Source of the DNA: a virus
Lineage: Duplodnaviria > Heunggongvirae > Uroviricota > Caudoviricetes
DNA: 20,633 nt
Virus record (IMG/VR): IMGVR_UViG_2606217106_000021
Direction: 5' to 3' (one strand)
Shown: piece by piece, positions 1,335 through 20,633 of the stretch
Position numbering within the stretch: position 1 is the first letter of the stretch
Layout of the letters: each line of letters starts with the position of its first letter
Notes under the pieces: generated by a model
Database searches by the model: none
Seen by the model: only the letters and a program-made list of their open reading frames with translations
Told to the model about the DNA's origin: nothing
Program-made: the position numbers and the translations under genes

Positions 1335-1919
1335 TTACTCCCTGACAGGGTTCGTAGGCCACTCAATATCAGGTGCAGTTGATGTATCAACACGGTTCAG
1401 CAACACCCGATACTTTTTCCAGGCTTCCAGCAATGAGGTTTCTTCCTCCGTTGCAATTTCCAGATCTGCAGCATCCTGAAGCGGCGCAATATGCTCACTG
1501 GCTACCTGCATCAGGTTGTTTTTTGTTTCTTCCGCCTCCCGGATCCGGAACAGTTTTTCTGCTTCTGCATCTTTCACCCAGGTTGTGCCGTTCCACTTCT
1601 GAAACTCCCCTTCTGGCGATAACCAGGTAACATTTTCCGGTAATAAGCCGAGTTCAGAAATAAATAACGCGTCGCCGGAAGCTACGTCATAAACCGTTTT
1701 ACCCCGATGATCTTCAACGAGATGCCACGATGCCTCATCACTGTTGAAAACAGCCACAAAGCCAGCCGGAATATCTGGCGGTGCAATATCGGTACTGTTT
1801 GCTGGCAGACCTGTATGAGGCGGAATATATGCGTCACCTTCACCAATAAATTCATTAGTTCCGGCCAGCAGATTATAAATTTTTATGGTCCGTGCTTGTT
1901 CACTCATTCTGAATGCCAT
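1335..1919 (-). CDS. tfa: Tail fibre assembly protein Tfa (194 aa)
   Basis: Near full-length identity to lambda Tfa as I recall it ([78 protein letters not shown]...), same 194-aa length. Its ATG overlaps the stf stop as TAATG at 1917-1921. Confidence 0.93.
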
Positions 1920-4900
1920 TATGCAAGCCTCACAATATAGTTAAATGCGATGTTTTTGACGGTGTTTTCCGCGTTACCCGCAGCGTTAACGGTGATGGTG
2001 TGTCCATGTGAACCAATCGCAACGGAGTGCGTATGCGCACCAATACCTACAGTATGTGCATGTGCGCCAGAACTTGCTGCAGTACCAGACAGCGAGTGGG
2101 TATGAGCACCTGCTGACTGTGTCTGAATACGTTGATAATACGATCTATAGGAAGAAGTCCCCGGGCTTACTTGATACTGTGAATTCTGGACATAAGTGAA
2201 CCCACCGCCATCATAAAATGCTAACGCAGAACCGCCGCCTCCTGGCCAACGAATACCATTACCATGAGTATGAACACCGGCAGACCCCGTAGAGCCACTC
2301 AGACTGTGCGTATGCGCCCCGGTGTTATTCGTGGATTTAGTGCCGTAATCAAACGACGATGTGGTTTTCGTCCCCAAATCCGTACTGGATGCGCTGGCGC
2401 TGTGGGTATGCGATTTAATGCCGTCCTGTTCCTGAGACAATACGGCCCGACCACTGGCAGGTTTGCCCTTAATCGTCCAGCCACGCATATCAGGGATCAC
2501 GCCTGACGGATAAGCGGCTGCAAGTTTCGGGTAGGCAGATTTGTTAAAAGTCTGCCCCTGCATCAGGGCATAACCAGACGGAACGGTATCTGATGGCCAC
2601 GGGATTGGTGCGCCAACTGGGTAGCTTTCTGGTGGAAGATTTTTCGAGGTATAAACTTCTGCCCAGTCTTCCTCAAAACCATAACCGTCTCTTGAAGAAC
2701 GGTAGAACAGACCACGATTTCTGTAATGCGCCTTCATCTGCAGGGTCCGGCAACTTCCGACTCCGGTATAGAAGTTAACCAGAATATAGCTGTCGCCAGA
2801 GCGGGTGACATTGTAAGCGCCTGATTCGGCATTCCAGGGAACGGCTCCATCCGAATCCGCATAAGCCCCCGTCGAACGTCGGGCAAATGCACCAATATTT
2901 TCCGACGTGAGGTTAATATCCGCCGAGCCATCAAACTTAACACCGTTAATTTTTGGGGCTGCCGCAAGTTTCGTCGCGGTATCGGCGTTCCCCTTCAGTG
3001 CCCCGGTGATCCCATCAGTAACAGACAACGGACCTGAAATAGTCCCTCCAGTCGTTGGCAGCGCTCCAATATCTGATGGTGTAGGTTTCTGATGTGAGCT
3101 ATACATCGTATAAACAACACCACCGGTAACGCTGGAAGGCTTACTCGCTGAATATGTTGGCGAGGTATAAATAGAAACTGACGCATTTGTAGTACAATCC
3201 CAATGGATATTTACACTCGTCGCATAATTGCCAATCTCAACGTAAATATCATATGTATCGCCGGATGTGTTGATCCAGGCGAAATTCGTTAATCCGACGG
3301 CTGTACGCTTCCACAAAGCTCCGGTAATCCCTTTGGGCTTTCCATTGCCTGCTCGTAGAACCAGTTCTGAAATGCCTGCCTGCTGTGGGGAGCCGACGTT
3401 GTAACCAGCGCCACCAATCAATGCGATGTAAACGATGGAACTCGCTTGTGGCATGGTAACCGTTGCCAGTTTGAACCACCCTGCCCCGCCAGAGAAAGAG
3501 ATCGTTACTGAATTTAAAGTGCCAATATCTTTCGGTGTTAATGTTATATCCGCAGTCAGTGCTTTCCCGTTAACTTTTCGGTTAGATGGTACCCTGCCAT
3601 TCGCATTGTCATTCGCTGCTTTAACTGCCTTCGGTGTCGCGGCAAGCGTTTCAGATGTGCTGTTGGTCGCACTGCTGAGCTGTACTATCCCCTTTTTCGT
3701 CGTACTTGCATCCTCAAGCGCCACGGCGGATGCAATATCCTCTGCCCGTTTTGCCGCTGTCTCGGCGCGCGTTGCCGCGGATTCCGCCGTACTTTTGCTC
3801 TGTGCTGCCGCCGTCGCACTGCCAGCTGCCTCTGTCGCCTTCGTGGATGCTGTCGTGGCGCTGCCCTTCGCTGCTGACGCCTGTCTGGTCGCCTCATCTT
3901 TTGAAGCTGACGCCGATGATGCCGATGACGCCGCCGAACTGGCGGACGATGCGGCAGCCGTTTTTGAGGATTCTGCGCTGGTTTCCGACGCTTTCGCGTT
4001 CGTCTCGGATGTCTTCGCTGCGGAAGCAGACCTTGCTGCTGCACTGGCCTGTTCAGTGGCTTTGCCAGCCTTCGTTGTGGCTGTTGAAGCGGATGATGCG
4101 GCGCTTTCTGCCGATTTTCCGGCGGCGGTGGCACTGGCTGAGGCCTGCCCGGCACTTGTTGACGCGGCACTGGCAGATGATGCAGCCGCTGTTTTTGAGC
4201 CTGCCGCAGCTGAGGCACTCTGTCCCGCTGCCGTTTCAGAAGACCTGGCGTTCGTCTCGGACGTCTTTGCCGCCTTCGCGGAATTTCCTGCCGCCGTTGC
4301 CGAGGAAGCTGCACTACTGGCACTTGATGATGCATTCGTTTCTGAAGATTTCGCTGCCTCTTTTGAGGCCGCCGCACCCCGTGCCGAGGTGGCAGCTTCT
4401 GACGCCTTCGTGGTCGCTGTGGATGCAGAAGTGGCTGCCGATTTTTGTGATGCTGCGGCATTCGTTTCTGACGTTTTCGCGGCACTGGCGCTGGTAGCTG
4501 CCGCGCTTTTTGATGACTCTGCAGCAGCAGCACTTTTTGCTGCTTCACGGGCCTTTGTCGATGCCGTTCCTGCGCTGGAAGACGCTGACTGAGCCGACGA
4601 CGCGGCCTGTCCGGCTGGCGTGCTGGCGGCACGTGCTGAGGCTGCAGCATCGGTTGCATGAGTTGCCGCCTCGCTGGCTGATGCACTGGCATCGCTGGCT
4701 GATTTTTTCGCGGCTGCCGTATTCTGTGCAACCGCGGAGGCGTTACGTGACACCTCTTCCACCATCTGCTCAAAGCGGCGCAGTGCCTCCGGTCGGACAT
4801 CATCCTCCGTCATGGCACCGAGAAAATCATTCAGCGTACCTGGTCTGGAACCTTCATAGACGGTAATGGTCCCGGCATGTGAAGGCGGAAAACCTTCAAC

Positions 4901-5089
4901 CAGCAGGGTGACGCTGTACTGACCATGCTCAACATCCATGCTGTAACGTCCGGCTTCATCCGGATTTTCAGAGGCCACCGTGTTCACCACCACCGTGCTG
5001 CTGGTTCGTCTGGCCTTCAGCACAATGGTGCAGTTCTGTACTGGTTTTCCTGTGCCATCTTTAAGCACGCCAGAAATTTTTACTGTCAT
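1919..5089 (-). CDS. stf: Side tail fibre protein Stf (1056 aa), unsplit
   Basis: The N-terminal ~120 aa ([22 protein letters not shown]...[14 protein letters not shown]) and the C-terminal ~250 aa (HxH repeats, ...[24 protein letters not shown]) match lambda Stf as recalled. A long Ala/Ser/Thr-rich repetitive central region accounts for the spurious antisense ORFs. The middle of the protein (about residues 480-800) does not match my recollection of lambda. Confidence 0.9.
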
Positions 5090-5103
5090 ACTTTTCCACC
5101 AAT

Positions 5104-5135
5104 AAAAAAAGCCCGCAGCAGTGACGCCACGGGCT
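5104..5135 (-). terminator. Hairpin plus T7 run immediately upstream of the stf start (minus-strand sense)
   Basis: Minus strand reads agcccg-(14-nt loop)-cgggct followed by ttttttt, ending about 15 nt before the stf ATG. The stem is only 6 bp with a large loop, so it is of modest strength. Confidence 0.4.
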
Positions 5136-5240
5136 TCAGGACAGTGTAACTTTACGTTTCCTCAAACGCAGTTCACCCCATAAAGTGGATGAACCTGCGT
5201 ATCATAACAATATTTACAGAAGATAAATCGGCGTCTGTTG

Positions 5241-6164
5241 TCAGAAACGGTAACGGGAAGAAGCCACCACTCCTTCAGACAACGCCTGTGCATCCTTAAT
5301 GGCTCCATAGCAACGAATCCCCTCTGCTGCCGTATTCCCCAGCACCAGCGTGCCCTCCGGCAGATAACGTTTTTCGGTACCGTCCTCTGCCACATAAGAC
5401 GTTTTCGCTACCACAATGGCCAGATCGCCGTAATACCCCTTGAAGGATACCACTGCGCCCAGATCTTTCACTGCCGTTTCGAGTTGTGAATTTGAACCGC
5501 GACGGGTATCCATTTTTTCGCGGAAAAGCTTAAAGCCATTCAGCAGACGCCAGACGGTACCGTCCATAATGGCAATATTCACAAGACCACTGGCCTGATC
5601 ACAGAAAAGGTCGATATCATATGTCGGGTCGAACGTGTCACGATCCTGTTTTGACCACTCCTTACCGCTACCTTGTATGATGTTATTCTTCGTCGATCGG
5701 CCAAAATCGACTTCAATTTTCTCGAACTGGTCTCCTTCCATCGTATATTTGCCATACAGCACGGCATTCACCGCCTGCATTTCTTCCACCTGCACAATAG
5801 CGTGCTCTTCCTGTTTGAGGTTATCAGTGATGATACGCAGACGACGGTAGGCCGGGTCGTTCAGCTGAGCCGGATCTTCACCGGGAAGGCGCTCAACCGC
5901 CTGCTGGTAATTAAATTCGTGTTTCGGCTTGACGTAGCCAGGACGCAACACGCGGGTTTCACCACCACGATGGCGCAGCACTTTTCCTTCAACGATCGGG
6001 GAGACATAGGCCGCCACCGGCGTTTTTCCGGTAATTTTGTCCAGCATCACCTCTTCGGTGTGGAAATTCACCGTACGGCGGAAAAACAGCTCCAGAAATA
6101 GCGCACGGAATTTAACTTTTTGTTCGGTATAACCGAGTAACTGGCGGGTCGTAAACAATCCCAT
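5241..6164 (-). CDS. E: Major capsid protein E, C-terminally truncated (307 aa, lambda E is 341 aa)
   Basis: Matches lambda E over most of its length (YVSPIV.G.V.R.RGG, PGYVKPKHE, QVEEMQAV.AVL.GKYTM, DTRRGSNS.LETAVKDLG, GDVAIVV). It ends ...SSRYRF* where lambda continues for about 35 more residues. Confidence 0.85.
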   Translation of the reverse strand: MGLFTTRQLLGYTEQKVKFRALFLELFFRRTVNFHTEEVMLDKITGKTPVAAYVSPIVEGKVLRHRGGETRVLRPGYVKPKHEFNYQQAVERLPGEDPAQLNDPAYRRLRIITDNLKQEEHAIVQVEEMQAVNAVLYGKYTMEGDQFEKIEVDFGRSTKNNIIQGSGKEWSKQDRDTFDPTYDIDLFCDQASGLVNIAIMDGTVWRLLNGFKLFREKMDTRRGSNSQLETAVKDLGAVVSFKGYYGDLAIVVAKTSYVAEDGTEKRYLPEGTLVLGNTAAEGIRCYGAIKDAQALSEGVVASSRYRF

Positions 6165-9128: not shown

Positions 9129-9331
9129 AACCTCACTCCCAGCGGACGACGGCGACGTCGGGTTGTCCCCAGTACCGACTCCGCATCATTGATCGCCCGG
9201 TTAAGCTCATCCAGAGAAGCCGCCGTATATTCAATTCTGCGACCATCTTTCTGGACAGACACCACCCGTTTACCGGTTAATAAATCAAGGCGCGCCTGAC
9301 GCAGCGCCTGTAGTTCAGCGACTGTAACCAT
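9125..9331 (-). CDS. W: Head-tail joining protein W (68 aa)
   Basis: [23 protein letters not shown] matches lambda W ([23 protein letters not shown]). Its stop overlaps the B start as ATGA. Confidence 0.8.
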
Positions 9332-11408
9332 TCACTCCTCCGGACAGCTTCGCTGCCAGTTCTTTAAGGGTTGGCCGGGTCGTCTCTTCTTCCCGGGATT
9401 TTGCCAGTACAGCCAGATCAAGCTGCCAGCGTTGCACGGACACACGTAATGCCGCATAGGCATACACCAGGCAGTCCAGCGCTTCGTTACGCCGCTTTTT
9501 GTTATCCCACAGCAGACGCATCTTTCCTTTTTCCCACTTCTCCACAAGCTCTTCCGCGACCAGTTGCTGCGCCTCTGTCTGCGAAAAAATCTCCGGATCA
9601 TCAGGAAAATGGATGGCATACGACGTGGCTTCATCCGCAGGAGTGGGATCGGCTTTCATACGGGCATAGAGAATTTCTTTTGCGGTGTCCGTCCCCACTT
9701 CACACAGATACACGCCCCGCTGATTGCGGGTTTTCGGCATGGTGATCACCGGCTTGCCATAGACAGATGCGCCTTTTACCGGCAGCACCCGGAAAACACC
9801 GTGTTTTTTTGACCTCTGATAGACAATTTCACCATCGATCCCCCCGGTGTCCCAGCAGACACGGGAAATGGTCATTTCGGTTCCGTCTGCATGGCAGTAT
9901 TTTTTGTTGATCGCCGCATCCACACGTAACAGCGTCTCTTCCTCATCGGGACGGCCCATAATGATGATTTTATCCACCAGAAAAGCTTCCTCTCCCGGTG
10001 CCCATCCCCAGACATACATCTCAAAACGGTTTCGCTGCGAGTCAATGCCCGCCGTCAGATAAACCACCCGGGCTGGCACCGCCGCCGTGTAATGCACGAC
10101 CTTATCCATCAGTACCTGGTGATCGAGTTTTTCGCCCACGGCCTCTTCAGAAGCCACATCGGATGCTTTCGCGATTTCAGTTTTCACAGCATCAAGATGT
10201 ACGGGTGATATATCAGGGTATTTACGCTGCAGTGTCTGAGGGACACGGACAAGGATCCCTGATATATTCTGTGCCACTCGCTGAAAGATGTAGGTAAATA
10301 ACTCCGTCTCGAGGACAAGGCCTTCCTCACGAGCATTTTTCAGCTCCTGTGCATCGGCCTGTGCCTTCGTCAGTCGGTAACGTTCGTAATCAATGGTGCC
10401 GGGCTGAAGGTCTGATTCGCTGGCAGCCCTCAAATCCTCGATCTCTTTACGGAGTTTTTCGTTTTCAATATCAGCTTCCCTCTGCGCATACCACTGAATG
10501 GCAGCAGTTGTATCAAAAACTGATTCAGTCCCTTTCCCTCCACCAGAAACTAGTGGTAACCCCTGACTCTGCCAGGCGGTGACTGATGCCGGACTTCCAC
10601 CGTGACACTGCGCCGCCAGCCCGGCAAGGTCAGCACGGAACTGCTGTACCATTGCAAGAAATGCTGCTGGCTGCTGGGCGTAACTGGCATTCGTCATATC
10701 GAATTCCCCCTGCATCCAGCATATCGCCAGCAAAACGTTTTTCGGGTTTTTCTGCAATGCTGCCTTCGTGCGGAAAAGCAGATCCTGATATAACGGCTTA
10801 CCCACTCCCCAGCGAGCCGAATCCTGACTGGCCCCCGTGGACTCGCTGAATGTCCCCTCCGTGCCCTGGGTGAATGCCGAACCACCACGACAGCATGGTA
10901 CCAGCAGGATCCCCGCGTTATTAGGGATATACGGAAGCAGTTTTTTGGCAATATGTAAGCCCTGTCCGACACAGCCGTACTGCCCTTTGCTCAGGTCAGC
11001 CCGGGGATGGTTAATCGTACTCATATCCTGAACATCATGCAGACAATGGTCAGCAGGAATGATGTCGTTAAATACGCATACTTCACCACCGGGAGTCACT
11101 GTGTTACGACGGGCCAGTTGCTTAATGCGCGGATGGGGCGCATCGTATGAATCCGGCAGCGGAAGCCCTTCACCGTAAGCCATGGCATTGGACTGCCCGG
11201 CCAGTACGATGACGTAGTACCAATCCGGCTCAGTTGCACCACTGACCACCACATCACCTTCTGCTGCAATCGCCTGCATCAGGGTATAAGGGGTTATGGC
11301 CACCGGACTACCAAACGGCTGCCAGCCCTCCTTCAGTTTTTGTGTCAGTCGTTTCGCAAGGTCTGACGGCGATACCGCCCTGACCACGTCATAGTGTTTA
11401 AATGCCAT
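9315..11408 (-). CDS. Chimeric ORF (697 aa): DUF1737-like/SASA-type esterase-like N-terminal region joined to the terminase large subunit (gpA) C-terminal domain
   Basis: Residues about 430-697 match lambda gpA's C-terminal region ([64 protein letters not shown]). Residues about 60-300 carry a [11 protein letters not shown] motif typical of SASA/SGNH sialate O-acetylesterases, which I associate with prophage nanS-p genes. A coiled-coil-like linker (about 310-420) matches neither. No terminase ATPase N-terminal region and no upstream nu1 are present. Confidence 0.7.
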
Positions 11409-11630: not shown

Positions 11631-11635
11631 GCCCA

Positions 11636-11885
11636 CAAGAAAACCCCTCCGGAGAGGGGCTAAAGCCGCGTATCTGTATCATCATGCACATGGTGCCGGG
11701 TGCCTCCCGGTGAGTTCAGCCCGGTGCCACTAAACCCGCGTCATTCTCGTTTTGATAATCAGAGATTATACCGTCACCAGTCGCCCCTCCGCTCAGGGGG
11801 ATTCACCATGCGAAATTTTTTTAACAAATGCCCAGTCTGACAGGCAACTGTCAACTTACTGAATTGTGAGCAACATAGCATTTAA
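11636..11885. repeat. Repeat unit A of a diverged direct repeat (partner at about 12122-12340)
   Basis: Shares identical blocks with unit B: aaaacccctccggagaggggct, catggtgccgggtgcctcccggtga, cccctccgcNcagggggattcaccatg, ttttaacaaa, gtcaac, ctgaattNtgag. Sequence between the blocks has diverged. Confidence 0.7.
11637..11660 (-). terminator. Minus-strand rho-independent terminator (repeat unit A)
   Basis: Minus strand reads cccctc-tccg-gagggg followed by ttttcttg. It is back to back with the plus-strand terminator at 11601-11630. Confidence 0.55.
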
Positions 11886-11934: not shown

Positions 11935-12121
11935 TGGAAGGATAGCGGTCATGTGATGCCGGTTTCCCGGTAACTCAGCACCGGTATCTGAGTCAACGTT
12001 TTCTCTACTGGGTCATTTCCGATACGCCCTGCCTGCTGACAGGCTTTCATCACATCTGAAAATATAGCACCCTGACTGATACTGTAGTACCTAAGGTTCC
12101 AGAAACTGTGATGTATCCGGC

Positions 12122-12148
12122 ACAGAAAAGCCCCTCCGGAGAGGGGCT
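12122..12148 (-). terminator. Minus-strand rho-independent terminator (repeat unit B)
   Basis: Minus strand reads gcccctc-tccg-gaggggc, a perfect 7-bp GC stem, followed by ttttctg. Confidence 0.6.
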
Positions 12149-12340
12149 GGAGAGTGGCGCTATGTGCCATTGCATGGTGCCGGGTGCCTCCCGGTGAATT
12201 CAGTACCAGCACCTGAATCCGCGATTATCCCATATACCTACTCGCTGATTGCCCCTCCGCACAGGGGGATTCACCATGCCAGTTTCTTTTAACAAACTCC
12301 CCGCAAACCAGACAACAGTCAACCGCCTGAATTATGAGAC
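12122..12340. repeat. Repeat unit B (partner of 11636-11885)
   Basis: Same conserved hairpin blocks as unit A. The hairpin cccctccgcacaggggg differs from unit A only in the loop (a versus t). Confidence 0.7.
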
Positions 12341-12383: not shown

Positions 12384-12460
12384 TGGCGCGTTGTACTGGA
12401 TTCGAACCAGTGACCGATTGCTTAGAAGGCAATTGCTCTGTCCGGCTGAGCTAACAACGC
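12384..12460 (-). tRNA. argO: tRNA-Arg (anticodon UCU)
   Basis: Reverse complement folds as a cloverleaf: acceptor GCGTTGT/ACAACGC, T-loop GGTTCGAATCC, anticodon loop CTTCTAA, 3' GCCA. The symbol is by analogy with the ileZ-argN-argO cluster of Stx-type lambdoid phages and is not verified. Confidence 0.85.
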
Positions 12461-12473
12461 ATGATGCAGATAA

Positions 12474-12550
12474 TGGACCGCCATCGGGGACTTGAACCCC
12501 GCGCAGCCAGCTTCGAAGGCTGGCGCTCTTTCCTGATGAGCTAATGGCGG
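12474..12550 (-). tRNA. argN: tRNA-Arg (anticodon UCG)
   Basis: Reverse complement: acceptor CCGCCAT/ATGGCGG, T-arm CGGGG-TTCAAGT-CCCCG, anticodon loop CTTCGAA, 3' TCCA. Symbol by analogy only. Confidence 0.8.
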
Positions 12551-12557
12551 TATGTGA

Positions 12558-12633
12558 TGGTGGCCCTTGCTGGATTTGAACCAGCGACCTGGCGATTATG
12601 AGTCGCTCGCTCTCACCACTGAGCTAAAGGGCC
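12558..12633 (-). tRNA. ileZ: tRNA with CAU anticodon, Ile2 (lysidine) type
   Basis: Reverse complement GGCCCTTTAGCTCAGTGGTGAGAGCGAGCGACTCATAATCGCCAGGTCGCTGGTTCAAATCCAGCAAGGGCCACCA closely resembles E. coli ileX-type tRNA (anticodon loop CTCATAA). Symbol by analogy only. Confidence 0.8.
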
Positions 12634-12661: not shown

Positions 12662-13375
12662 TCAATAATCAAGCCCTTGCCTGGATACATATCTGTCTGG
12701 CGGGAAGCCATAATAGCGGTGAAATACAGAAATAAAGTAGGACCTGCTTGAATAACCGCATTTTTCTGCTATAGCCTGTCCATATCCATGCCGGGAACAT
12801 AACATATTTACAGCAACACGCATCCGCTCTTCCAGCAACAAGCGACTGAACATGCCCCCTTCATTTTTCAGTTTTGTCTTTAACAAACTCTCACTCATAT
12901 GCAACTGTAGAGCAATCGCACCAAGCGTCCAGCTTGCTGATATATCTGTCTGAATTATCGCCCTGACTTTGGCACTTATGCTGGATAAACATCCACTTAA
13001 AAACAATGACATCCGTTCATCTGTTTCAAACAGAGACAGGCAGGCCATCATAAGAAACATATCCGTGGCCTCTCCGGAAAATCCCTGGCTGGTAATTAAA
13101 GCCGCAGCCAACGCAGGATTGTTGGGTTCCAGCAACAGGTAAAGCGGAATGTCAGTCAGACGAGTCCTCGTCAGCTTATGCTGACTTTCCAGATATTGAC
13201 TTACGACGGATTCGCTTATATCGACAATTTTAACTTTGCCATAATGCATAAGGAAAAGCTCCCTGATGCATTTGGTGGCCAGAACAACTGAGCCTGGCTT
13301 AAGTGACAACGTATCCTTTTCAAGAAAAATATTAATTGGGGAGCAAACCATGATAACTGAACAGACAACAGCCAT
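12662..13375 (-). CDS. AraC/XylS-family transcriptional regulator, AppY-like (237 aa)
   Basis: C-terminal AraC-type HTH (AIAEKCGYSSRSYFISVFHRYYGFPP). The N-terminus MAVVCSVIMVC...KIVDI resembles AppY (MDYVCSVVFIC...RIVDI, recalled from memory). AT-rich; the 13376-13509 gap upstream could hold its own promoter. Confidence 0.85.
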   Translation of the reverse strand: MAVVCSVIMVCSPINIFLEKDTLSLKPGSVVLATKCIRELFLMHYGKVKIVDISESVVSQYLESQHKLTRTRLTDIPLYLLLEPNNPALAAALITSQGFSGEATDMFLMMACLSLFETDERMSLFLSGCLSSISAKVRAIIQTDISASWTLGAIALQLHMSESLLKTKLKNEGGMFSRLLLEERMRVAVNMLCSRHGYGQAIAEKCGYSSRSYFISVFHRYYGFPPDRYVSRQGLDY

Positions 13376-17761: not shown

Positions 17762-18411
17762 GCCGCCATCTCCCTGACCAGTTTTTCCGCCTGCTGGCGA
17801 ACCTGCGCCAGAAACGCCTCACCACATGCCTCAAGTTCATCGCGCCCTATGTAGCTGATTGCCGGTCCCTTCCAGGTCTTGTCGAAAACAGCAATAGCAC
17901 CAGCGAAGAAAGCACCTGTTGGCACCTGCTTTTCGTCTTTCGGGATAAACCAGGCAGGCAGTTCAAAACCAATACGCCCGCGAATAAAAGCAATATGATC
18001 TGCATCTTCCGGCCACCACACTTCGCTGGTGGCAGCTTTGATCAGGAAAACATAGCGCCCGCCTTTATCACGCATGGCACTGGCATGTTTCATGATGTAA
18101 CGCATGCCGGTGATGTATTGCCCCTCATGCTGACTGGCGCGGCTGTACGGGGGATTACCAAAGGCAGCACCTTTAAGCTCCGCAAGACGTTCAGACCAGT
18201 CATGCGCCAGCGCGTTGTCTTCCGCAGTGTAATAAGCGGCACATTTGGCGTTATCACCATCAGTGAACAGATCCAGAACAAACGGGCCAAACAGGGTGTT
18301 AATTCCCCAGAAAATGTTGTCCGGCGTGCGCCACTGATCGCCCACTTCCTTCAGTTCATGGGCTGGTTTGTTCCGCAGCTCCACCAGCGCCTGGCAATAT
18401 TTATTACTCAT
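17758..18411 (-). CDS. Phage Dam-type DNA N6-adenine methyltransferase (about 217 aa; six-frame ORF extends to 18444)
   Basis: Catalytic FGNPPYSR (NPPY) motif. The start is probably M12 (MSNKY...), which forms a TAATG overlap with the upstream gene stop at 18411-18413. Confidence 0.8.
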   Translation of the reverse strand: MSNKYCQALVELRNKPAHELKEVGDQWRTPDNIFWGINTLFGPFVLDLFTDGDNAKCAAYYTAEDNALAHDWSERLAELKGAAFGNPPYSRASQHEGQYITGMRYIMKHASAMRDKGGRYVFLIKAATSEVWWPEDADHIAFIRGRIGFELPAWFIPKDEKQVPTGAFFAGAIAVFDKTWKGPAISYIGRDELEACGEAFLAQVRQQAEKLVREMAA

Positions 18412-18905
18412 TAAGCCCCCACGTAATTCCCTGACAGATACCACTCTTCACCCGATGCAGCGCGCTTGCTGCTTTTCCGTAAGCACCGCTCACGATGCGC
18501 CAGAAAATTGTTTCGTTCTGGCTGGGAGTGGCTTTCACGGAATGCCTCCATCCACACCGTTGCAGCTCGACGGAATAAGCCCCTGGACTCCAGTTCTTCC
18601 GCCTGGCGAGTCAGGCACAAAATCACCTGCGGGTCGTTAGTGCCGACACAGAAATTGCGCACAGGTCTGGTTTCACGAACTGGTTGTGGTTCCGGCTCCT
18701 GTGCTCTCTCAGTCAGGCGCGGGAAATGTCTGCGTGTATCTCCTTCACAACGGTGAGCCACACGCCCACTCTGACGTAACTTGCTTGCTGACTGCAGAAC
18801 GCGCTGCCGTGAGTAACCTGCAAAAGCATCCGCAATGTCTCCGGAAGTACACCCCGGATGGGCTTCAATGAATTTCTGAACTTCATTCAAAAGACTCATG
18901 ATCAC
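18411..18905 (-). CDS. Hypothetical protein (164 aa) with a possible PerC-like motif
   Basis: AEELESRGLFRRAATVWMEAF resembles the PerC/Pch family signature as I recall it (LE..G.wRRAA..W). Translationally coupled on both sides. The family assignment is uncertain. Confidence 0.45.
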   Translation of the reverse strand: MIMSLLNEVQKFIEAHPGCTSGDIADAFAGYSRQRVLQSASKLRQSGRVAHRCEGDTRRHFPRLTERAQEPEPQPVRETRPVRNFCVGTNDPQVILCLTRQAEELESRGLFRRAATVWMEAFRESHSQPERNNFLAHRERCLRKSSKRAASGEEWYLSGNYVGA

Positions 18906-19720
18906 CCCCTGAATCCTTCCGGGATCTGGCTGTAGTCCACGTTGTCGTAACTGGCTTTGAAGTACGGGTCCTCGCGTCTGGCTGCAGATACCGCAGGAAC
19001 TTCCCAGGATTCTTCGAAATGACGATCCGGACCAAAGAACGTGACAGCCTGTTTCACAAATTGTGTGCCGCTGTTACCCATCGCAGATACCCAGCCCGCG
19101 TAGCGTTTCACACCTTCCAGCATGGTTTCGGGGTTTACCCCCTCATTCAAACGGGCTTTCCAGGCTTTGAAGGCTGCAGATTTTGAATTGCCACCAGCAC
19201 GTTTGGGGTATGCCAGCCATGCCTGCTCAAACTCCGGAGAGTATTCCGGTCGGTTTGAACGAACTCGCACAGACTCATCAGCAGATTCACCAACAGCTAT
19301 TGGTTCATTGACTGGTTCTTTGACTGGTTCAAAAGAGTGACTGGTTCTGGGTGAATCTCCTGCACTACCCCCTGGTGCAACTCCTGCACTACCTGGTGAA
19401 TTTGCTGCACCAGATAGTGAATTATTTGCACTACCCCCTAGTGAATCTCCTGCACCATCCAGATGAAGGAGATAGATATTACTTGAGTTACCTTTTTCAC
19501 CTTTCCGGGTGACTTTTTTTACCAGCCCGGACTCACAGAGGGCCGCAATATGATTCATCACAGAACGTTTGCTAATCTCGCACTGATCAGCGATATGCTG
19601 ATAGCTGGGCCAGCACTCACCCTGATCGCTGGCATTATCAGCCAGCTTAATCAGAACCAGTTTTCGCAATGGATTTCCCACTCGAATTTTCATCGCTTTA
19701 ACCATCAACTCCATACTCAT
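18902..19720 (-). CDS. Replication initiator (O-like) with N-terminal HTH and internal iterons (about 272 aa from MSMELM...; six-frame ORF extends to 19759)
   Basis: N-terminal LVLIKLADNASDQGECWPSYQHIADQCEISKRSVMNHIAALCESGLVKK is typical of phage replication-initiator HTH domains. The gene contains a direct-repeat array at 19309-19460 followed by an AT-rich stretch. GGAGG lies 7 nt before the ATG at 19718-19720. Confidence 0.65.
   Translation of the reverse strand: MSMELMVKAMKIRVGNPLRKLVLIKLADNASDQGECWPSYQHIADQCEISKRSVMNHIAALCESGLVKKVTRKGEKGNSSNIYLLHLDGAGDSLGGSANNSLSGAANSPGSAGVAPGGSAGDSPRTSHSFEPVKEPVNEPIAVGESADESVRVRSNRPEYSPEFEQAWLAYPKRAGGNSKSAAFKAWKARLNEGVNPETMLEGVKRYAGWVSAMGNSGTQFVKQAVTFFGPDRHFEESWEVPAVSAARREDPYFKASYDNVDYSQIPEGFRG
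19309..19460. repeat. Candidate replication origin: three TGACTGGTTC repeats and five ~21-24 bp iterons (GTGAAT.T.CTGCAC.A.CCC) inside the O-like gene
   Basis: Direct repeats read from the sequence at about 19309, 19321, 19338 (10-mers) and 19351, 19374, 19395, 19417, 19441 (iterons). An AT-rich segment at 19461-19500 follows. Confidence 0.6.
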
Positions 19721-19941
19721 GCAGCACCTCCGAGATGCTTCATGTTTTTTCCGGAGCAAAAGGCTATAAGCGGCATACTGACGCGGTAATTACGGCCCAG
19801 CGGTTCACAAATCACCTTCTGACATTCACGGTCAACCAGGCTAACACGTAGAACATGCCCTGCAGGCGTGGTGTACCACTGACCCGGACGAGGACAACAG
19901 AAAGTATGATTGGTAAACCGTTTGAAAATATTCCGGATCAT
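19717..19941 (-). CDS. Hypothetical small Cys-containing protein (74 aa)
   Basis: Its start overlaps the Rha stop and its stop overlaps the O-like start, both as ATGA. No family recognised. Confidence 0.4.
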   Translation of the reverse strand: MIRNIFKRFTNHTFCCPRPGQWYTTPAGHVLRVSLVDRECQKVICEPLGRNYRVSMPLIAFCSGKNMKHLGGAA

Positions 19942-20483
19942 TTACGCCCCCTTACCTCTGAAGGGTTCAGCGACAAATTTATGAGACTGGCCAGTAGCGC
20001 CGCGTCGTTGATGCGGTCATACAGACTTACAGCCAGCGGGGATTCGGCTTTTGCCAACATGGGATAAAGCTGCTGCAGCCAGACCTTGTGGATTACCGAC
20101 AGGTGGGAGTAAAGCACGCTGGCGTTATCTGCGGCATCGCTCAGCGTGGATGGCTTTGAAAGCAGTTTTTCCATCTGGTTAAAGGCATTTATGTATGCCT
20201 CTTTGAACCGGGCAGCACGTTTACCAGTGAAGCCCATGGCAAGAAACGCAAAACCGTCGCGGGTGATTTGGTAACAAGGGAGTTTGCGGCCTGATGCGTC
20301 GGTGTATTCACTTAACACAAAATTGTGTTCAGTAAATTCAGCGGAACATTCGAGGTTTCTAATTCTATCTAAAACCCGCTCATGCCGTTTAGTAAAGTAA
20401 TTAGCTACTGCAAGAGATGTGGTGACAACGCGACCATTGATAATCGTGATTTCAGGGTGAGATTGGGTTGGGAGAGTAGTCAT
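19938..20483 (-). CDS. Rha-family phage regulatory protein (about 181 aa from MTTLPTQ...; six-frame ORF extends to 20624)
   Basis: ITIINGRVVTTSLAVANYFTKRHERVLDRIRNLE fits the Rha N-terminal domain pattern (..V.TSR.IAE.FGKRH.NVLR.I.NL). The start is uncertain because the window ends at 20633. Confidence 0.7.
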   Translation of the reverse strand: MTTLPTQSHPEITIINGRVVTTSLAVANYFTKRHERVLDRIRNLECSAEFTEHNFVLSEYTDASGRKLPCYQITRDGFAFLAMGFTGKRAARFKEAYINAFNQMEKLLSKPSTLSDAADNASVLYSHLSVIHKVWLQQLYPMLAKAESPLAVSLYDRINDAALLASLINLSLNPSEVRGRK

Positions 20484-20633
20484 GGTGACAGCCCCTATGT
20501 TGAATTCAATGAACTCACCACCAAGGCTTTCCACGACCATATAGGTGGTGAGACGTACAGGGGTGGAAATACCGGTCAACATAGAACCCGGCCCAACCGA
20601 AGTTGGCCCTGCACGCCCCACCATAATTTGGGC

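Follow-up and report, generated by a model that had tools for sequence, protein, structure and literature searches.

Introduction

In bacteriophage lambda the replication origin, oriλ, lies inside the initiator gene O. Four phased, dyad-symmetric iterons 20-24 bp apart separate the coding regions of the N-terminal DNA-binding domain and the C-terminal partner-binding domain, and a 40-bp AT tract is found downstream of them. In the iteron plasmids pSC101, R6K and RK2 a single Rep protein (RepA, π and TrfA, respectively) is combined with an unwinding element beside the iterons, and replication depends on DnaB-DnaC of the host. Here we analyze a 20,633-nucleotide (nt) stretch of DNA from a virus of the Caudoviricetes (IMG/VR record IMGVR_UViG_2606217106_000021; this whole stretch is referred to as the window), in which a replication initiator gene of 272 amino acids (aa) contains two classes of direct repeats. 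An earlier note on this DNA had proposed that iterons lie inside the initiator gene as they do in lambda. Our results favor that proposal, insofar as the repeats are palindromic, are spaced by about two helical turns, recur at the same position in relatives and co-vary with the recognition helix of the initiator. On the strength of these sequence comparisons we consider it probable (roughly 0.8) that the repeats serve a lambdoid E. coli prophage (SfV / mEp460 / ST64B-type module) as replication origin, located within its own initiator gene. Origins of this lambda type are already known as a kind; the window adds a member with an initiator unrelated to O and with no dedicated loader.

Initiator-only modules are reportedly called "initiator-solo" in a 2006 review by Weigel and Seitz, which is said possibly to list SfV and ST64B. 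Our literature search returned nothing on "initiator-solo" and no origin description for SfV or ST64B. The initiator module analyzed here is also the replication region of Stx2c, Stx2k and "Eru6" Stx2a phages. Eru regions have been sorted by gene content only, the replication of Eru phages has been called unknown, and the word iteron is not mentioned in that work, which defines Eru6 by HTH_36 and Rha-family proteins in the first two positions beside cI (PMC8951638). With the protein of the Eru6 representative Stx2a_WGPS2 (AP012537) the window initiator shares 97.8% identity, and a Rha/Ash-domain gene (19938-20624) lies upstream as described for that type (PMC8951638). The window ends before cI, so that it covers no cI adjacency. 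Unlike the Eru6 phages, it lacks an stx gene and has the appearance of a degraded prophage.

Results

Initiator gene and protein

In the right-hand portion of the window the minus strand carries every gene, and the iterons, the 10-mer repeats and an AT-rich patch all lie within the initiator gene:

18902-19720, minus strand: replication initiator gene, 272 aa, with its ATG at 19720 and GGAGG ahead of it
19457-19720, minus strand: N-terminal winged-helix domain, aa 1-88 (AlphaFold2 pLDDT ~85)
19253-19456, minus strand: predicted disordered linker, aa 89-156 (pLDDT 30-40), holding both repeat classes
18905-19252, minus strand: C-terminal domain, aa 157-272, with a helical core at aa ~162-214 (pLDDT ~77) and the tail ...IPEGFRG
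19469-19498: least stable 30-mer within the initiator gene and 200 bp on each side (70% AT, z = 3.2)
19351-19455, inside the initiator open reading frame (ORF): iteron array, five imperfect palindromes of 15 bp that read GTGCA-N5-T(T/G)CAC on the gene strand, at 19441-19455, 19417-19431, 19396-19410, 19375-19389 and 19351-19365
19322-19348, minus strand: conserved 27-nt block AGAACCAGTCAC-TCTTTT-GAACCAGTC, starting two bases (CC) past the last iteron and holding two 10-mers
19301-19348, minus strand: 10-mer zone, with GAACCAGTCA at 19338-19347, 19321-19330 and 19309-19318 and a partial GAACCA at 19301-19306

The protein belongs to the HTH_36-type phage replication initiators (PHROG 270 / 8540 / 391). 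Its Pfam HTH_36 match covers aa 17-67 (E = 1.8e-11; 44.1 bits, the cut-off being 25), the whole protein is spanned by PHROG 270 "replication initiation protein" (E = 1.1e-88), PHROG 8540 matches with E = 5.7e-62, and further PHROGs match the N-terminal half alone or the C-terminal half alone. It is 98.9% identical to the "replication protein" orf39 of Shigella phage SfV. The AlphaFold2 model, for which a 34-sequence alignment served as input, gives the N-terminal domain (N-domain) four successive helices and a beta-hairpin, with the predicted recognition helix around aa 50-57 (SKRSVMNH). Foldseek searches with this domain returned generic winged-helix proteins only, including the DnaD N-domain 2v79; the Pfam DnaD_N match of the initiator was sub-threshold, and a sequence search of the PDB with the whole protein gave nothing useful. 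Phage_rep_O (PF04492) is absent from the Pfam matches, which comprise HTH_36, DnaD_N and other HTH families. Since no sequence similarity to lambda O was detected by BLAST or phmmer either, the label "O-like" given to the gene in the earlier note cannot be kept as a statement of homology; it describes the function and layout of the initiator, not its family membership.

The iteron array

Five repeats of about 22 bp had been described within the initiator ORF as encoding a Gly/Ser/Ala/Pro-rich linker, and both Tandem Repeats Finder (score 77) and shuffled sequences bear out the presence of the repeats. Together with the 10-mers they encode approximately aa 89-140, and the iteron spacings are 24, 21, 21 and 24 bp. 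When up to three mismatches were allowed, the core 15-mer GTGAATCTCCTGCAC matched four times within the 105-bp array and once elsewhere on either strand of the window, against 0.51 matches per window expected from shuffling; five matches were reached in 0 of 100 shuffles. The iteron copy at 19417 has four mismatches to this core. The match outside the array, GTGTATCTCCTTCAC (18734-18748, plus strand, two mismatches), is inside the PerC-family gene and was treated as a chance occurrence, being a single match where about 0.5 are expected per window.

All five iterons of the window show dyad symmetry, and relatives exist in which the palindrome is perfect, e.g. GTGACAAAATGTCAC and GGGCAGGAGCTGCCC. 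Four independent lines of evidence favor a DNA-level function of the 22-bp repeats over a merely repetitive linker.

The first is that the architecture of the array recurs in phages that share the N-domain. Each of the first seven N-domain relatives, from Salmonella, Aeromonas, Vibrio, Escherichia (Stx phage F451), Klebsiella and Stenotrophomonas, carries 3-5 tandem repeats that recur every 21-24 bp and have a dyad-symmetric core of 15 bp. When all relatives examined are taken together (Salmonella ST64B and S137, Aeromonas AsXd-1, Vibrio D67 and 252E42.2, Stx2a_F451, Klebsiella RothC, Stenotrophomonas BUCT709, E. coli mEp044, Psychrobacter Y8A and Aggregatibacter S1249), the arrays consist of 3-6 tandem units of the same period around a dyad core of ~15 bp, and they begin ~260-290 nt into the initiator gene. 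In IMG/VR the iteron layout was recognized by eye in 72 of 72 distinct sequences upstream of the conserved block. Secondly, the iteron cores vary by lineage (GTGACAAAATGTCAC, GGGCAGGAGCTGCCC, GCACACCCCCTGTGC, TGCCATCTGATGGCA, GCATAGCCCCTATGC), and the linker peptides that they encode are unrelated among lineages (PSDKMSP, GGAGAA, STPVPPE, PMPSDGT). The conserved feature is the DNA architecture and not the linker peptide.

The iteron cores furthermore follow the protein. Among 128 loci with 33 distinct recognition-helix strings, each helix class pairs with one iteron class: SKRSVMNH, the helix of the window initiator, with GTGCAGGAGATTCAC; SKSAVRxH and close variants with TGCC-N7-GGCA, e.g. TGCCACCAGATGGCA; DRSTVR(R/K)H with GTAGGCCCAGAAAGCAC; (S/G)RSTVKxH with GGGCAGGAGCTGCCC; and DKRTAMRH with GTGAT-N5-GTCAC. 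Finally, in mEp044 (locus L215, 2501-3493) and Vibrio phage 252E42.2 (locus L217, 2501-3418) the iterons, GTGACACAGAGTCAC and GTGACAGAGAGTCAC, are read in two frames within a single array, and selection acting on the peptide could not produce such a repeat.

These observations should be weighed against the view that the repeats are a slippage-prone, low-complexity coding linker without any DNA function, the origin being elsewhere or replication being driven by recombination. The encoded peptide is indeed Gly/Ser/Ala/Pro-rich and predicted to be disordered, and the iteron spacings in the window are all multiples of 3. Copy number also changes by whole units, as replication slippage would give: proteins 97-99% identical to the window initiator over aligned residues are 242-302 aa long, and the differences are mostly whole repeat units, with other deletions in 2 of 13. 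The N-domain alignment search for loci returned only 99-100% identical copies and served for counting copy number, not diversity; among the 81 loci obtained, 57 have five iterons and three 10-mers, and the range is 4-6 iterons and 2-5 10-mers. Since these numbers vary next to near-identical N-domains, the linker tolerates changes in length. Slippage, however, leaves unexplained the dyad symmetry of each unit, the architecture common to lineages with unrelated peptides, the co-variation of iteron core and recognition helix, the reading of iteron and 10-mer DNA in two frames, and the complete synonymous-site identity of the conserved block (100% against 40% in the folded domain, see below). We therefore regard a linker without DNA function as extremely improbable.

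A conserved block of 10-mers downstream of the iterons

On the plus strand the 10-mer reads TGACTGGTTC, with three perfect copies at 19309, 19321 and 19338 and a partial TGGTTC at 19301. The 10-mer zone is 58% AT and its gene strand is A-rich (19 A, 9 T); AGAACCAGTCAC-TCTTTT-GAACCAGTCA spans window positions 19348 down to 19321. The three 10-bp copies had been listed as part of the iteron array. They exist as perfect repeats but are not extra iterons; they form a separate element, which is near-unchanged where the iterons differ. The 10-mer is translated in two frames, the first copy as (A)GA-ACC-AGT-CA(C) (RTSH) and the second and third as GAA-CCA-GTC-A.. (EPV).

Codon usage was compared among seven lineages from six host genera, with N-domains 66-81% identical to that of the window, counting positions at which the amino acid is the same. 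In the winged-helix domain the same codon was used in 466 of 1,166 comparisons (40%), and in the nine codons of the block in 171 of 171. The substitutions that do occur in the block (ACC to ATC, AGT to TAT, TTT to TTA) all alter the amino acid. Because codon identity is complete and only amino-acid-changing substitutions are seen, the pattern has the signature of selection on the block at the level of the nucleotides, not of the peptide.

The block is also widespread. Approximately 37-40 nt across it match in 140 phage records, with hosts in Escherichia, Salmonella, Klebsiella, Vibrio, Pseudomonas, Stenotrophomonas, Aeromonas, Pectobacterium, Serratia and Aggregatibacter, and in the annotated rows among the matches listed it is always in a replication, primosomal, DNA-binding or regulator gene. 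The exact 27-mer is found in at least 120 IMG/VR stretches. The Eru5 phages F403 and F451 have the N-domain and the block in common with the window and differ from it in iteron class. Distant relatives carry a degenerate form, AACCAGTCA...AACCAGTAA in mEp044 and three copies of GAACCTATCAAT in Psychrobacter Y8A. The block takes the position of the conserved AT-rich segment in oriλ, and its end, AGTCAC, corresponds to the right half-site of the GTGAC-N5-GTCAC iteron class. No Rfam family was found over the repeats or the block.

Candidate roles for the block are an unwinding or helicase-entry site, weak half-sites extending the initiator oligomer, a site for a host factor, and a recombination junction between N- and C-terminal modules. 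A promoter is unlikely, since a scan of 18300-20633 found no sigma-70-like site against ~2.2 expected by chance.

According to the last of the candidate roles, the block would be a junction for homologous recombination, kept for or spread by the exchange of N- and C-modules, and would not be a component of the origin. Similarity among lineages with different C-terminal regions does cease at the block, within a few codons past it, and one N-domain plus block is joined to at least four types of C-terminal region. A comparable discussion concerns the conserved AT-rich segment of phages lambda, phi80 and 82. However, recombination alone cannot fix 27 nt across phages of Enterobacterales, Vibrio, Aeromonas, Stenotrophomonas and Pseudomonas in which the flanking codons are synonymously saturated, and the degenerate repeat character retained in distant relatives suggests a sequence-specific function. 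A junction instead of an origin component thus seems unlikely to us; the two roles could coexist.

AT-rich stretch and candidate unwinding zones

The earlier note had also reported an AT-rich stretch next to the repeats. It is present and includes the least stable 30-mer, and the enrichment is modest (63% AT in the zone 19456-19520 against 50% for the whole initiator gene). With respect to the minus-strand gene, however, it lies on the N-terminal side of the iterons, opposite to the side on which lambda has its AT-rich segment; the order along the gene is AT-rich patch, iterons, 10-mers. Positions 19469-19498 encode the conserved wing of the winged helix, KGNSSNIYLL, and as the codons of the patch vary between lineages, its AT-richness may merely follow amino-acid composition. 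In 6 of 8 family members analyzed a low-stability patch is found at or just past the block. We consider 19469-19498 and 19301-19348 as two candidate unwinding zones, the latter being a candidate helicase-entry zone as well. Lambda itself, run through the same pipeline as a control, gave iterons 20-24 bp apart inside O with an AT-rich segment adjoining.

C-terminal domain and helicase delivery

No helicase or loader is encoded in the window, and none is annotated, nor a primase, in the complete genome of the viable, plaque-forming phage mEp460. The initiator is followed by a PerC-family gene, and the reported absence of a P- or DnaC-like gene behind it is accordingly upheld. The initiator module is also held by a 44.6-kb circular element of phage-genome size that was deposited as an E. 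coli plasmid, for which the typing shown lists no rep type; its sole "AAA family ATPase" gene adjoins the integrase, far from the replication module. The C-terminal domain (C-domain) of the initiator matches PHROGs 26426, 3729 and 1701. Its predicted fold gave no significant structural match, including to DnaD/DnaB_2 (DDBH2), and a PDB-sequence search with the C-domain profile returned nothing.

Among the 128 block loci the type of C-terminal region goes together with the gene that follows. RothC-type regions are followed by a lambda P homologue (17/17 loci with enough flank), BUCT709-type regions by DnaB (9/9) and S137/F451-type regions by a primase-helicase (4/4). In 5 loci the SfV-type C-domain, which is that of the window, is accompanied by an IstB/DnaC-like ATPase, alone or together with DnaB, and in 58 loci by no helicase gene. 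Pfam confirms the IstB/DnaC-like and DnaB genes downstream of this C-domain in AsXd-1, the Eru7 representative Stx2_14040 and Burkholderia phage DC1. Within this C-domain type the end of the protein sorts accordingly: of the complete proteins with a tail ...PxGFRG, or a one-residue variant of it, 58 of 58 are without a phage helicase or loader in the available flank (one flank being short), and in 5 of 5 cases with the tail ...DYGxSxxNW or ...SDKLTF a phage DnaC-like gene follows. E. coli phage 813R8 has an IPPGFRG tail on an unrelated N-domain and is without a loader. The initiator tail (18905-18925, minus strand) may, on this pattern, be a short partner-binding motif.

The initiators with an unrelated N-domain that share the C-domain (Eru7 Stx2_14040, Burkholderia DC1, E. 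coli 813R8) have in-gene tandem repeats of their own and lack the GAACCAGTCA block. A second protein search with the Burkholderia DC1 C-domain as seed yielded 29 matches only. The repeats, for example three copies of AAACCCAATTTCG or three 23-bp units, are at:

L006, 2840-2995: in-gene tandem repeats
L011, 2882-2950: in-gene tandem repeats
L010, 2713-2796: in-gene tandem repeats

Origins embedded in the initiator gene appear to be general among modules sharing this C-domain. As the C-domain tracks the helicase partner, we infer that it would work with a DnaC-type loader and, in initiator-only phages, would engage the DnaB-DnaC complex of the host; the pattern behind this is one of gene neighborhood, and many of the loci are near-identical prophages.

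The gene directly behind the initiator is the following:

18411-18899, minus strand: PerC-family regulator, YfdN homologue, 164 aa (162 aa from ATG), starting 2 nt past the initiator stop

This protein had been called unrecognised and proposed for a helicase-loader profile search. It is in fact recognized as a PerC-family member (Pfam PerC, E = 2.4e-8; PHROG 1324 "transcriptional activator", E = 1.6e-77; also PHROG 2608) with a MarR-like winged helix at its N-terminus, and it is annotated yfdN in RefSeq. If it were a new loader or adaptor replacing lambda P, its position would be easily understood, as its start is only 2 nt from the initiator stop codon and a yfdN gene is directly behind the initiator in 55 of 61 SfV-type C-domain loci without helicase or loader in the available flank, most of these 55 being near-identical E. 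coli prophages. The profile searches, however, returned PerC and regulator PHROGs without an AAA+, IstB or lambda P signature (NCBIfam ANR was below threshold), and initiator-only modules without yfdN exist: in Vibrio D67 an unrelated 108-aa ORF follows, and in E. coli phage 813R8 a DUF977 protein. We have rejected this protein as loader candidate, consider such a role very improbable, and do not count its gene with the replicon.

The exchange of modules also bears on the possibility that the repeats are initiator sites mainly for autoregulation, acting as a roadblock or attenuator of the rightward transcript through the initiator's own gene and not, or not only, as a replication start. Autoregulation is commonplace among plasmid iteron-binding initiators (pSC101, R6K and P1 replicons), the sites are inside a transcribed gene, and no strong AT-rich unwinding element adjoins them. 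On the other hand, five phased sites and a conserved flank between the DNA-binding and the helicase-partner modules reproduce the layout of oriλ, and N-domain, iterons and block travel as one module while C-domain and helicase genes are swapped, as would be expected of an origin with its specificity determinant. Moreover, an origin is indispensable to a phage that carries this module, and we saw no second candidate element. A mainly autoregulatory role is in our view improbable; it would be compatible with a role as origin.

Genomic context and state of the prophage

At the DNA level the window module shares 97% identity with the early-right region of coliphage mEp460, and many Stx2c and Stx2k phages match the module equally well. 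An identical copy of the initiator gene is found in the chromosome of E. coli TOE17, and the gene is covered to at least 80% in 897 of 5,426 complete E. coli genomes. Upstream of the initiator the following features are found:

19938-20624, minus strand: Rha/Ash-domain gene, first in gene order, followed by a 74-aa ORF and the initiator
between the Rha/Ash gene and the initiator, minus strand: 74-aa ORF, whose stop overlaps the initiator start (ATGA)
20541-20628, minus strand: C4 antisense RNA at the 5' end of the Rha/Ash gene (Rfam RF01695, 82 bits against a gathering score of 45)

In P1 and P7 the C4 antisense RNA controls the antirepressor gene ant. Its presence here suggests a control of c4/ant type ahead of the lambdoid replication module of the window. 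After the PerC-family gene, the minus-strand order continues with a Dam methylase, a protein with a LexA DNA-binding domain, RusA, a KilA-N protein, a DUF968/HNH protein and antiterminator Q. Further along are:

12662-13375, minus strand: AraC-family gene just upstream of the tRNA genes
12384-12460, 12474-12550 and 12558-12633, minus strand: three tRNA genes, Arg-TCT, Arg-TCG and Met/Ile-CAT, downstream of Q as in Stx phages
11631-11840 and 12118-12308, minus strand: two copies of the STnc100 small RNA
9315-11408, minus strand: 697-aa ORF, an in-frame chimera
5241-6164, minus strand: major capsid gene
1919-5089, minus strand: tail-fibre gene, one short gene-sized gap after the capsid gene
1335-1919: tail-fibre assembly gene
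1378-1576, minus strand: Rfam IS009 match (225.7 bits), overlapping the tail-fibre assembly gene

The 697-aa ORF joins DUF1737 and a SASA sialate O-acetylesterase domain (NanS-p-like, aa 1-262), an Nu1 small terminase (aa 266-419) and a GpA nuclease (aa 422-656). Of the large terminase GpA only the nuclease domain is kept and the ATPase domain is missing. There is no lysis cassette between the tRNA genes and this ORF. Since both the terminase ATPase domain and the lysis cassette are absent at these places, the prophage looks defective, with late functions lost. No tail tube, tape-measure or tip genes are present between the capsid and tail-fibre genes (1919-6164), and this arrangement points to the late region having undergone a second large deletion.

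Discussion

We propose that the N-terminal winged helix of the 272-aa initiator would bind the five 15-bp palindromic iterons as dimers. Spacing by about two helical turns would set the iterons on one face of the DNA, and a nucleoprotein complex resembling the lambda "O-some" could result. Such a complex might destabilize its flank, either the conserved GAACCAGTCA block downstream or the 70% AT patch upstream. The iterons also encode a flexible linker, and the C-terminal domain on this tether would then bring the replicative helicase. The window module encodes no helicase or loader, so that the helicase must come from the host, most likely via the DnaB-DnaC complex. In this model the binding, the opening of the DNA, the place where the helicase enters and the recruitment of DnaC from the host are inferred steps.

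With oriλ the locus has in common phased dyad repeats in the middle of the initiator gene (five, 21-24 bp apart), the position of these repeats between the coding regions of the DNA-binding and partner-binding domains, and a modularity in which N-module and iterons change together and the C-module matches the helicase-delivery partner. It differs in that the initiator is of HTH_36 type without detectable similarity to O, in that there is no P gene, and in that the strongest AT patch is upstream of the iterons in the window and downstream in lambda. The downstream element is near-invariant, moderately AT-rich and made of GAACCAGTCA direct repeats, in place of lambda's AT tract. Like pSC101, R6K and RK2, the module consists of a single winged-helix initiator with tandem iterons and no helicase or loader of its own. 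In the plasmids, however, the iterons are usually intergenic, whereas those of the window are within coding sequence and dependence on the host would be by analogy. Iteron plasmid origins also hold DnaA boxes, for which no search was made at the window locus. AsXd-1, Eru7 Stx2_14040 and Burkholderia DC1 / Bcep22 share a homologous C-terminal domain (46-72% identical), and AsXd-1 additionally has the N-domain, iteron class and block in common with the window. These phages differ from it in possessing their own IstB/DnaC-like ATPase, usually with DnaB, and in ending in ...DYGxSxxNW or ...SDKLTF and not in ...IPxGFRG. To the DnaD and Firmicutes phage replisome-organiser proteins the initiator gave no significant structural match, and the PDB profile search was empty.

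The reading of the repeats as an origin should be taken with some caution, as several observations weigh against it. BLASTP and phmmer comparisons with lambda O show no similarity to the initiator (E >= 0.16), and the analogy with lambda is one of architecture. The AT patch is weak, at best 70% AT against 83% in the lambda control, and unlike that of lambda it precedes the iterons, within the sequence coding for the conserved wing; for these reasons the unwinding site is uncertain. Some natural variants keep only 1-2 iterons, and either few suffice or these copies are dead. Many of the counted loci are near-identical E. coli prophages, so that the counts are inflated and correspond to ~10-15 independent lineages. 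As late genes have been lost, the origin copy of the window may be a relic that never fires, although its sequence is the common form with five iterons and three 10-mers. We found no experimental evidence for this initiator family in the literature that could be searched.

Tentatively, and with somewhat more doubt than belief, we put forward a broader hypothesis. The near-invariant block, to which the window adds a third 10-mer, could be a previously undescribed core origin element, common to one large initiator family of Gammaproteobacteria phages, serving as the opening site for iteron-bound initiator or as weak half-sites by which the oligomer is extended. It would then serve at least five helicase-delivery arrangements (P-type loader, phage DnaB, primase-helicase, phage DnaC-like loader, and no phage helicase gene). 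In the initiator-only phages, such as the window and the Eru6 Stx phages, the ...IPxGFRG tail would capture host DnaB-DnaC directly, so that no phage loader would be needed. The conserved block and the correlation between tail and partner are the parts that may be new.

In conclusion, the presented data suggest that a module common in E. coli carries its origin within its initiator gene. The block is an unusually clear case of DNA-level selection inside coding sequence, with 100% synonymous-site identity and one 10-mer in two frames. The initiator family as a whole is a natural experiment in modular initiator design, in which several solutions for helicase delivery are found joined to one DNA-binding module together with its iterons and block. 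Amplification of the phage genome after induction has been linked to toxin production (PMC8951638). Placing the origin and its specificity determinants would give a handle on that amplification in toxin-carrying phages.

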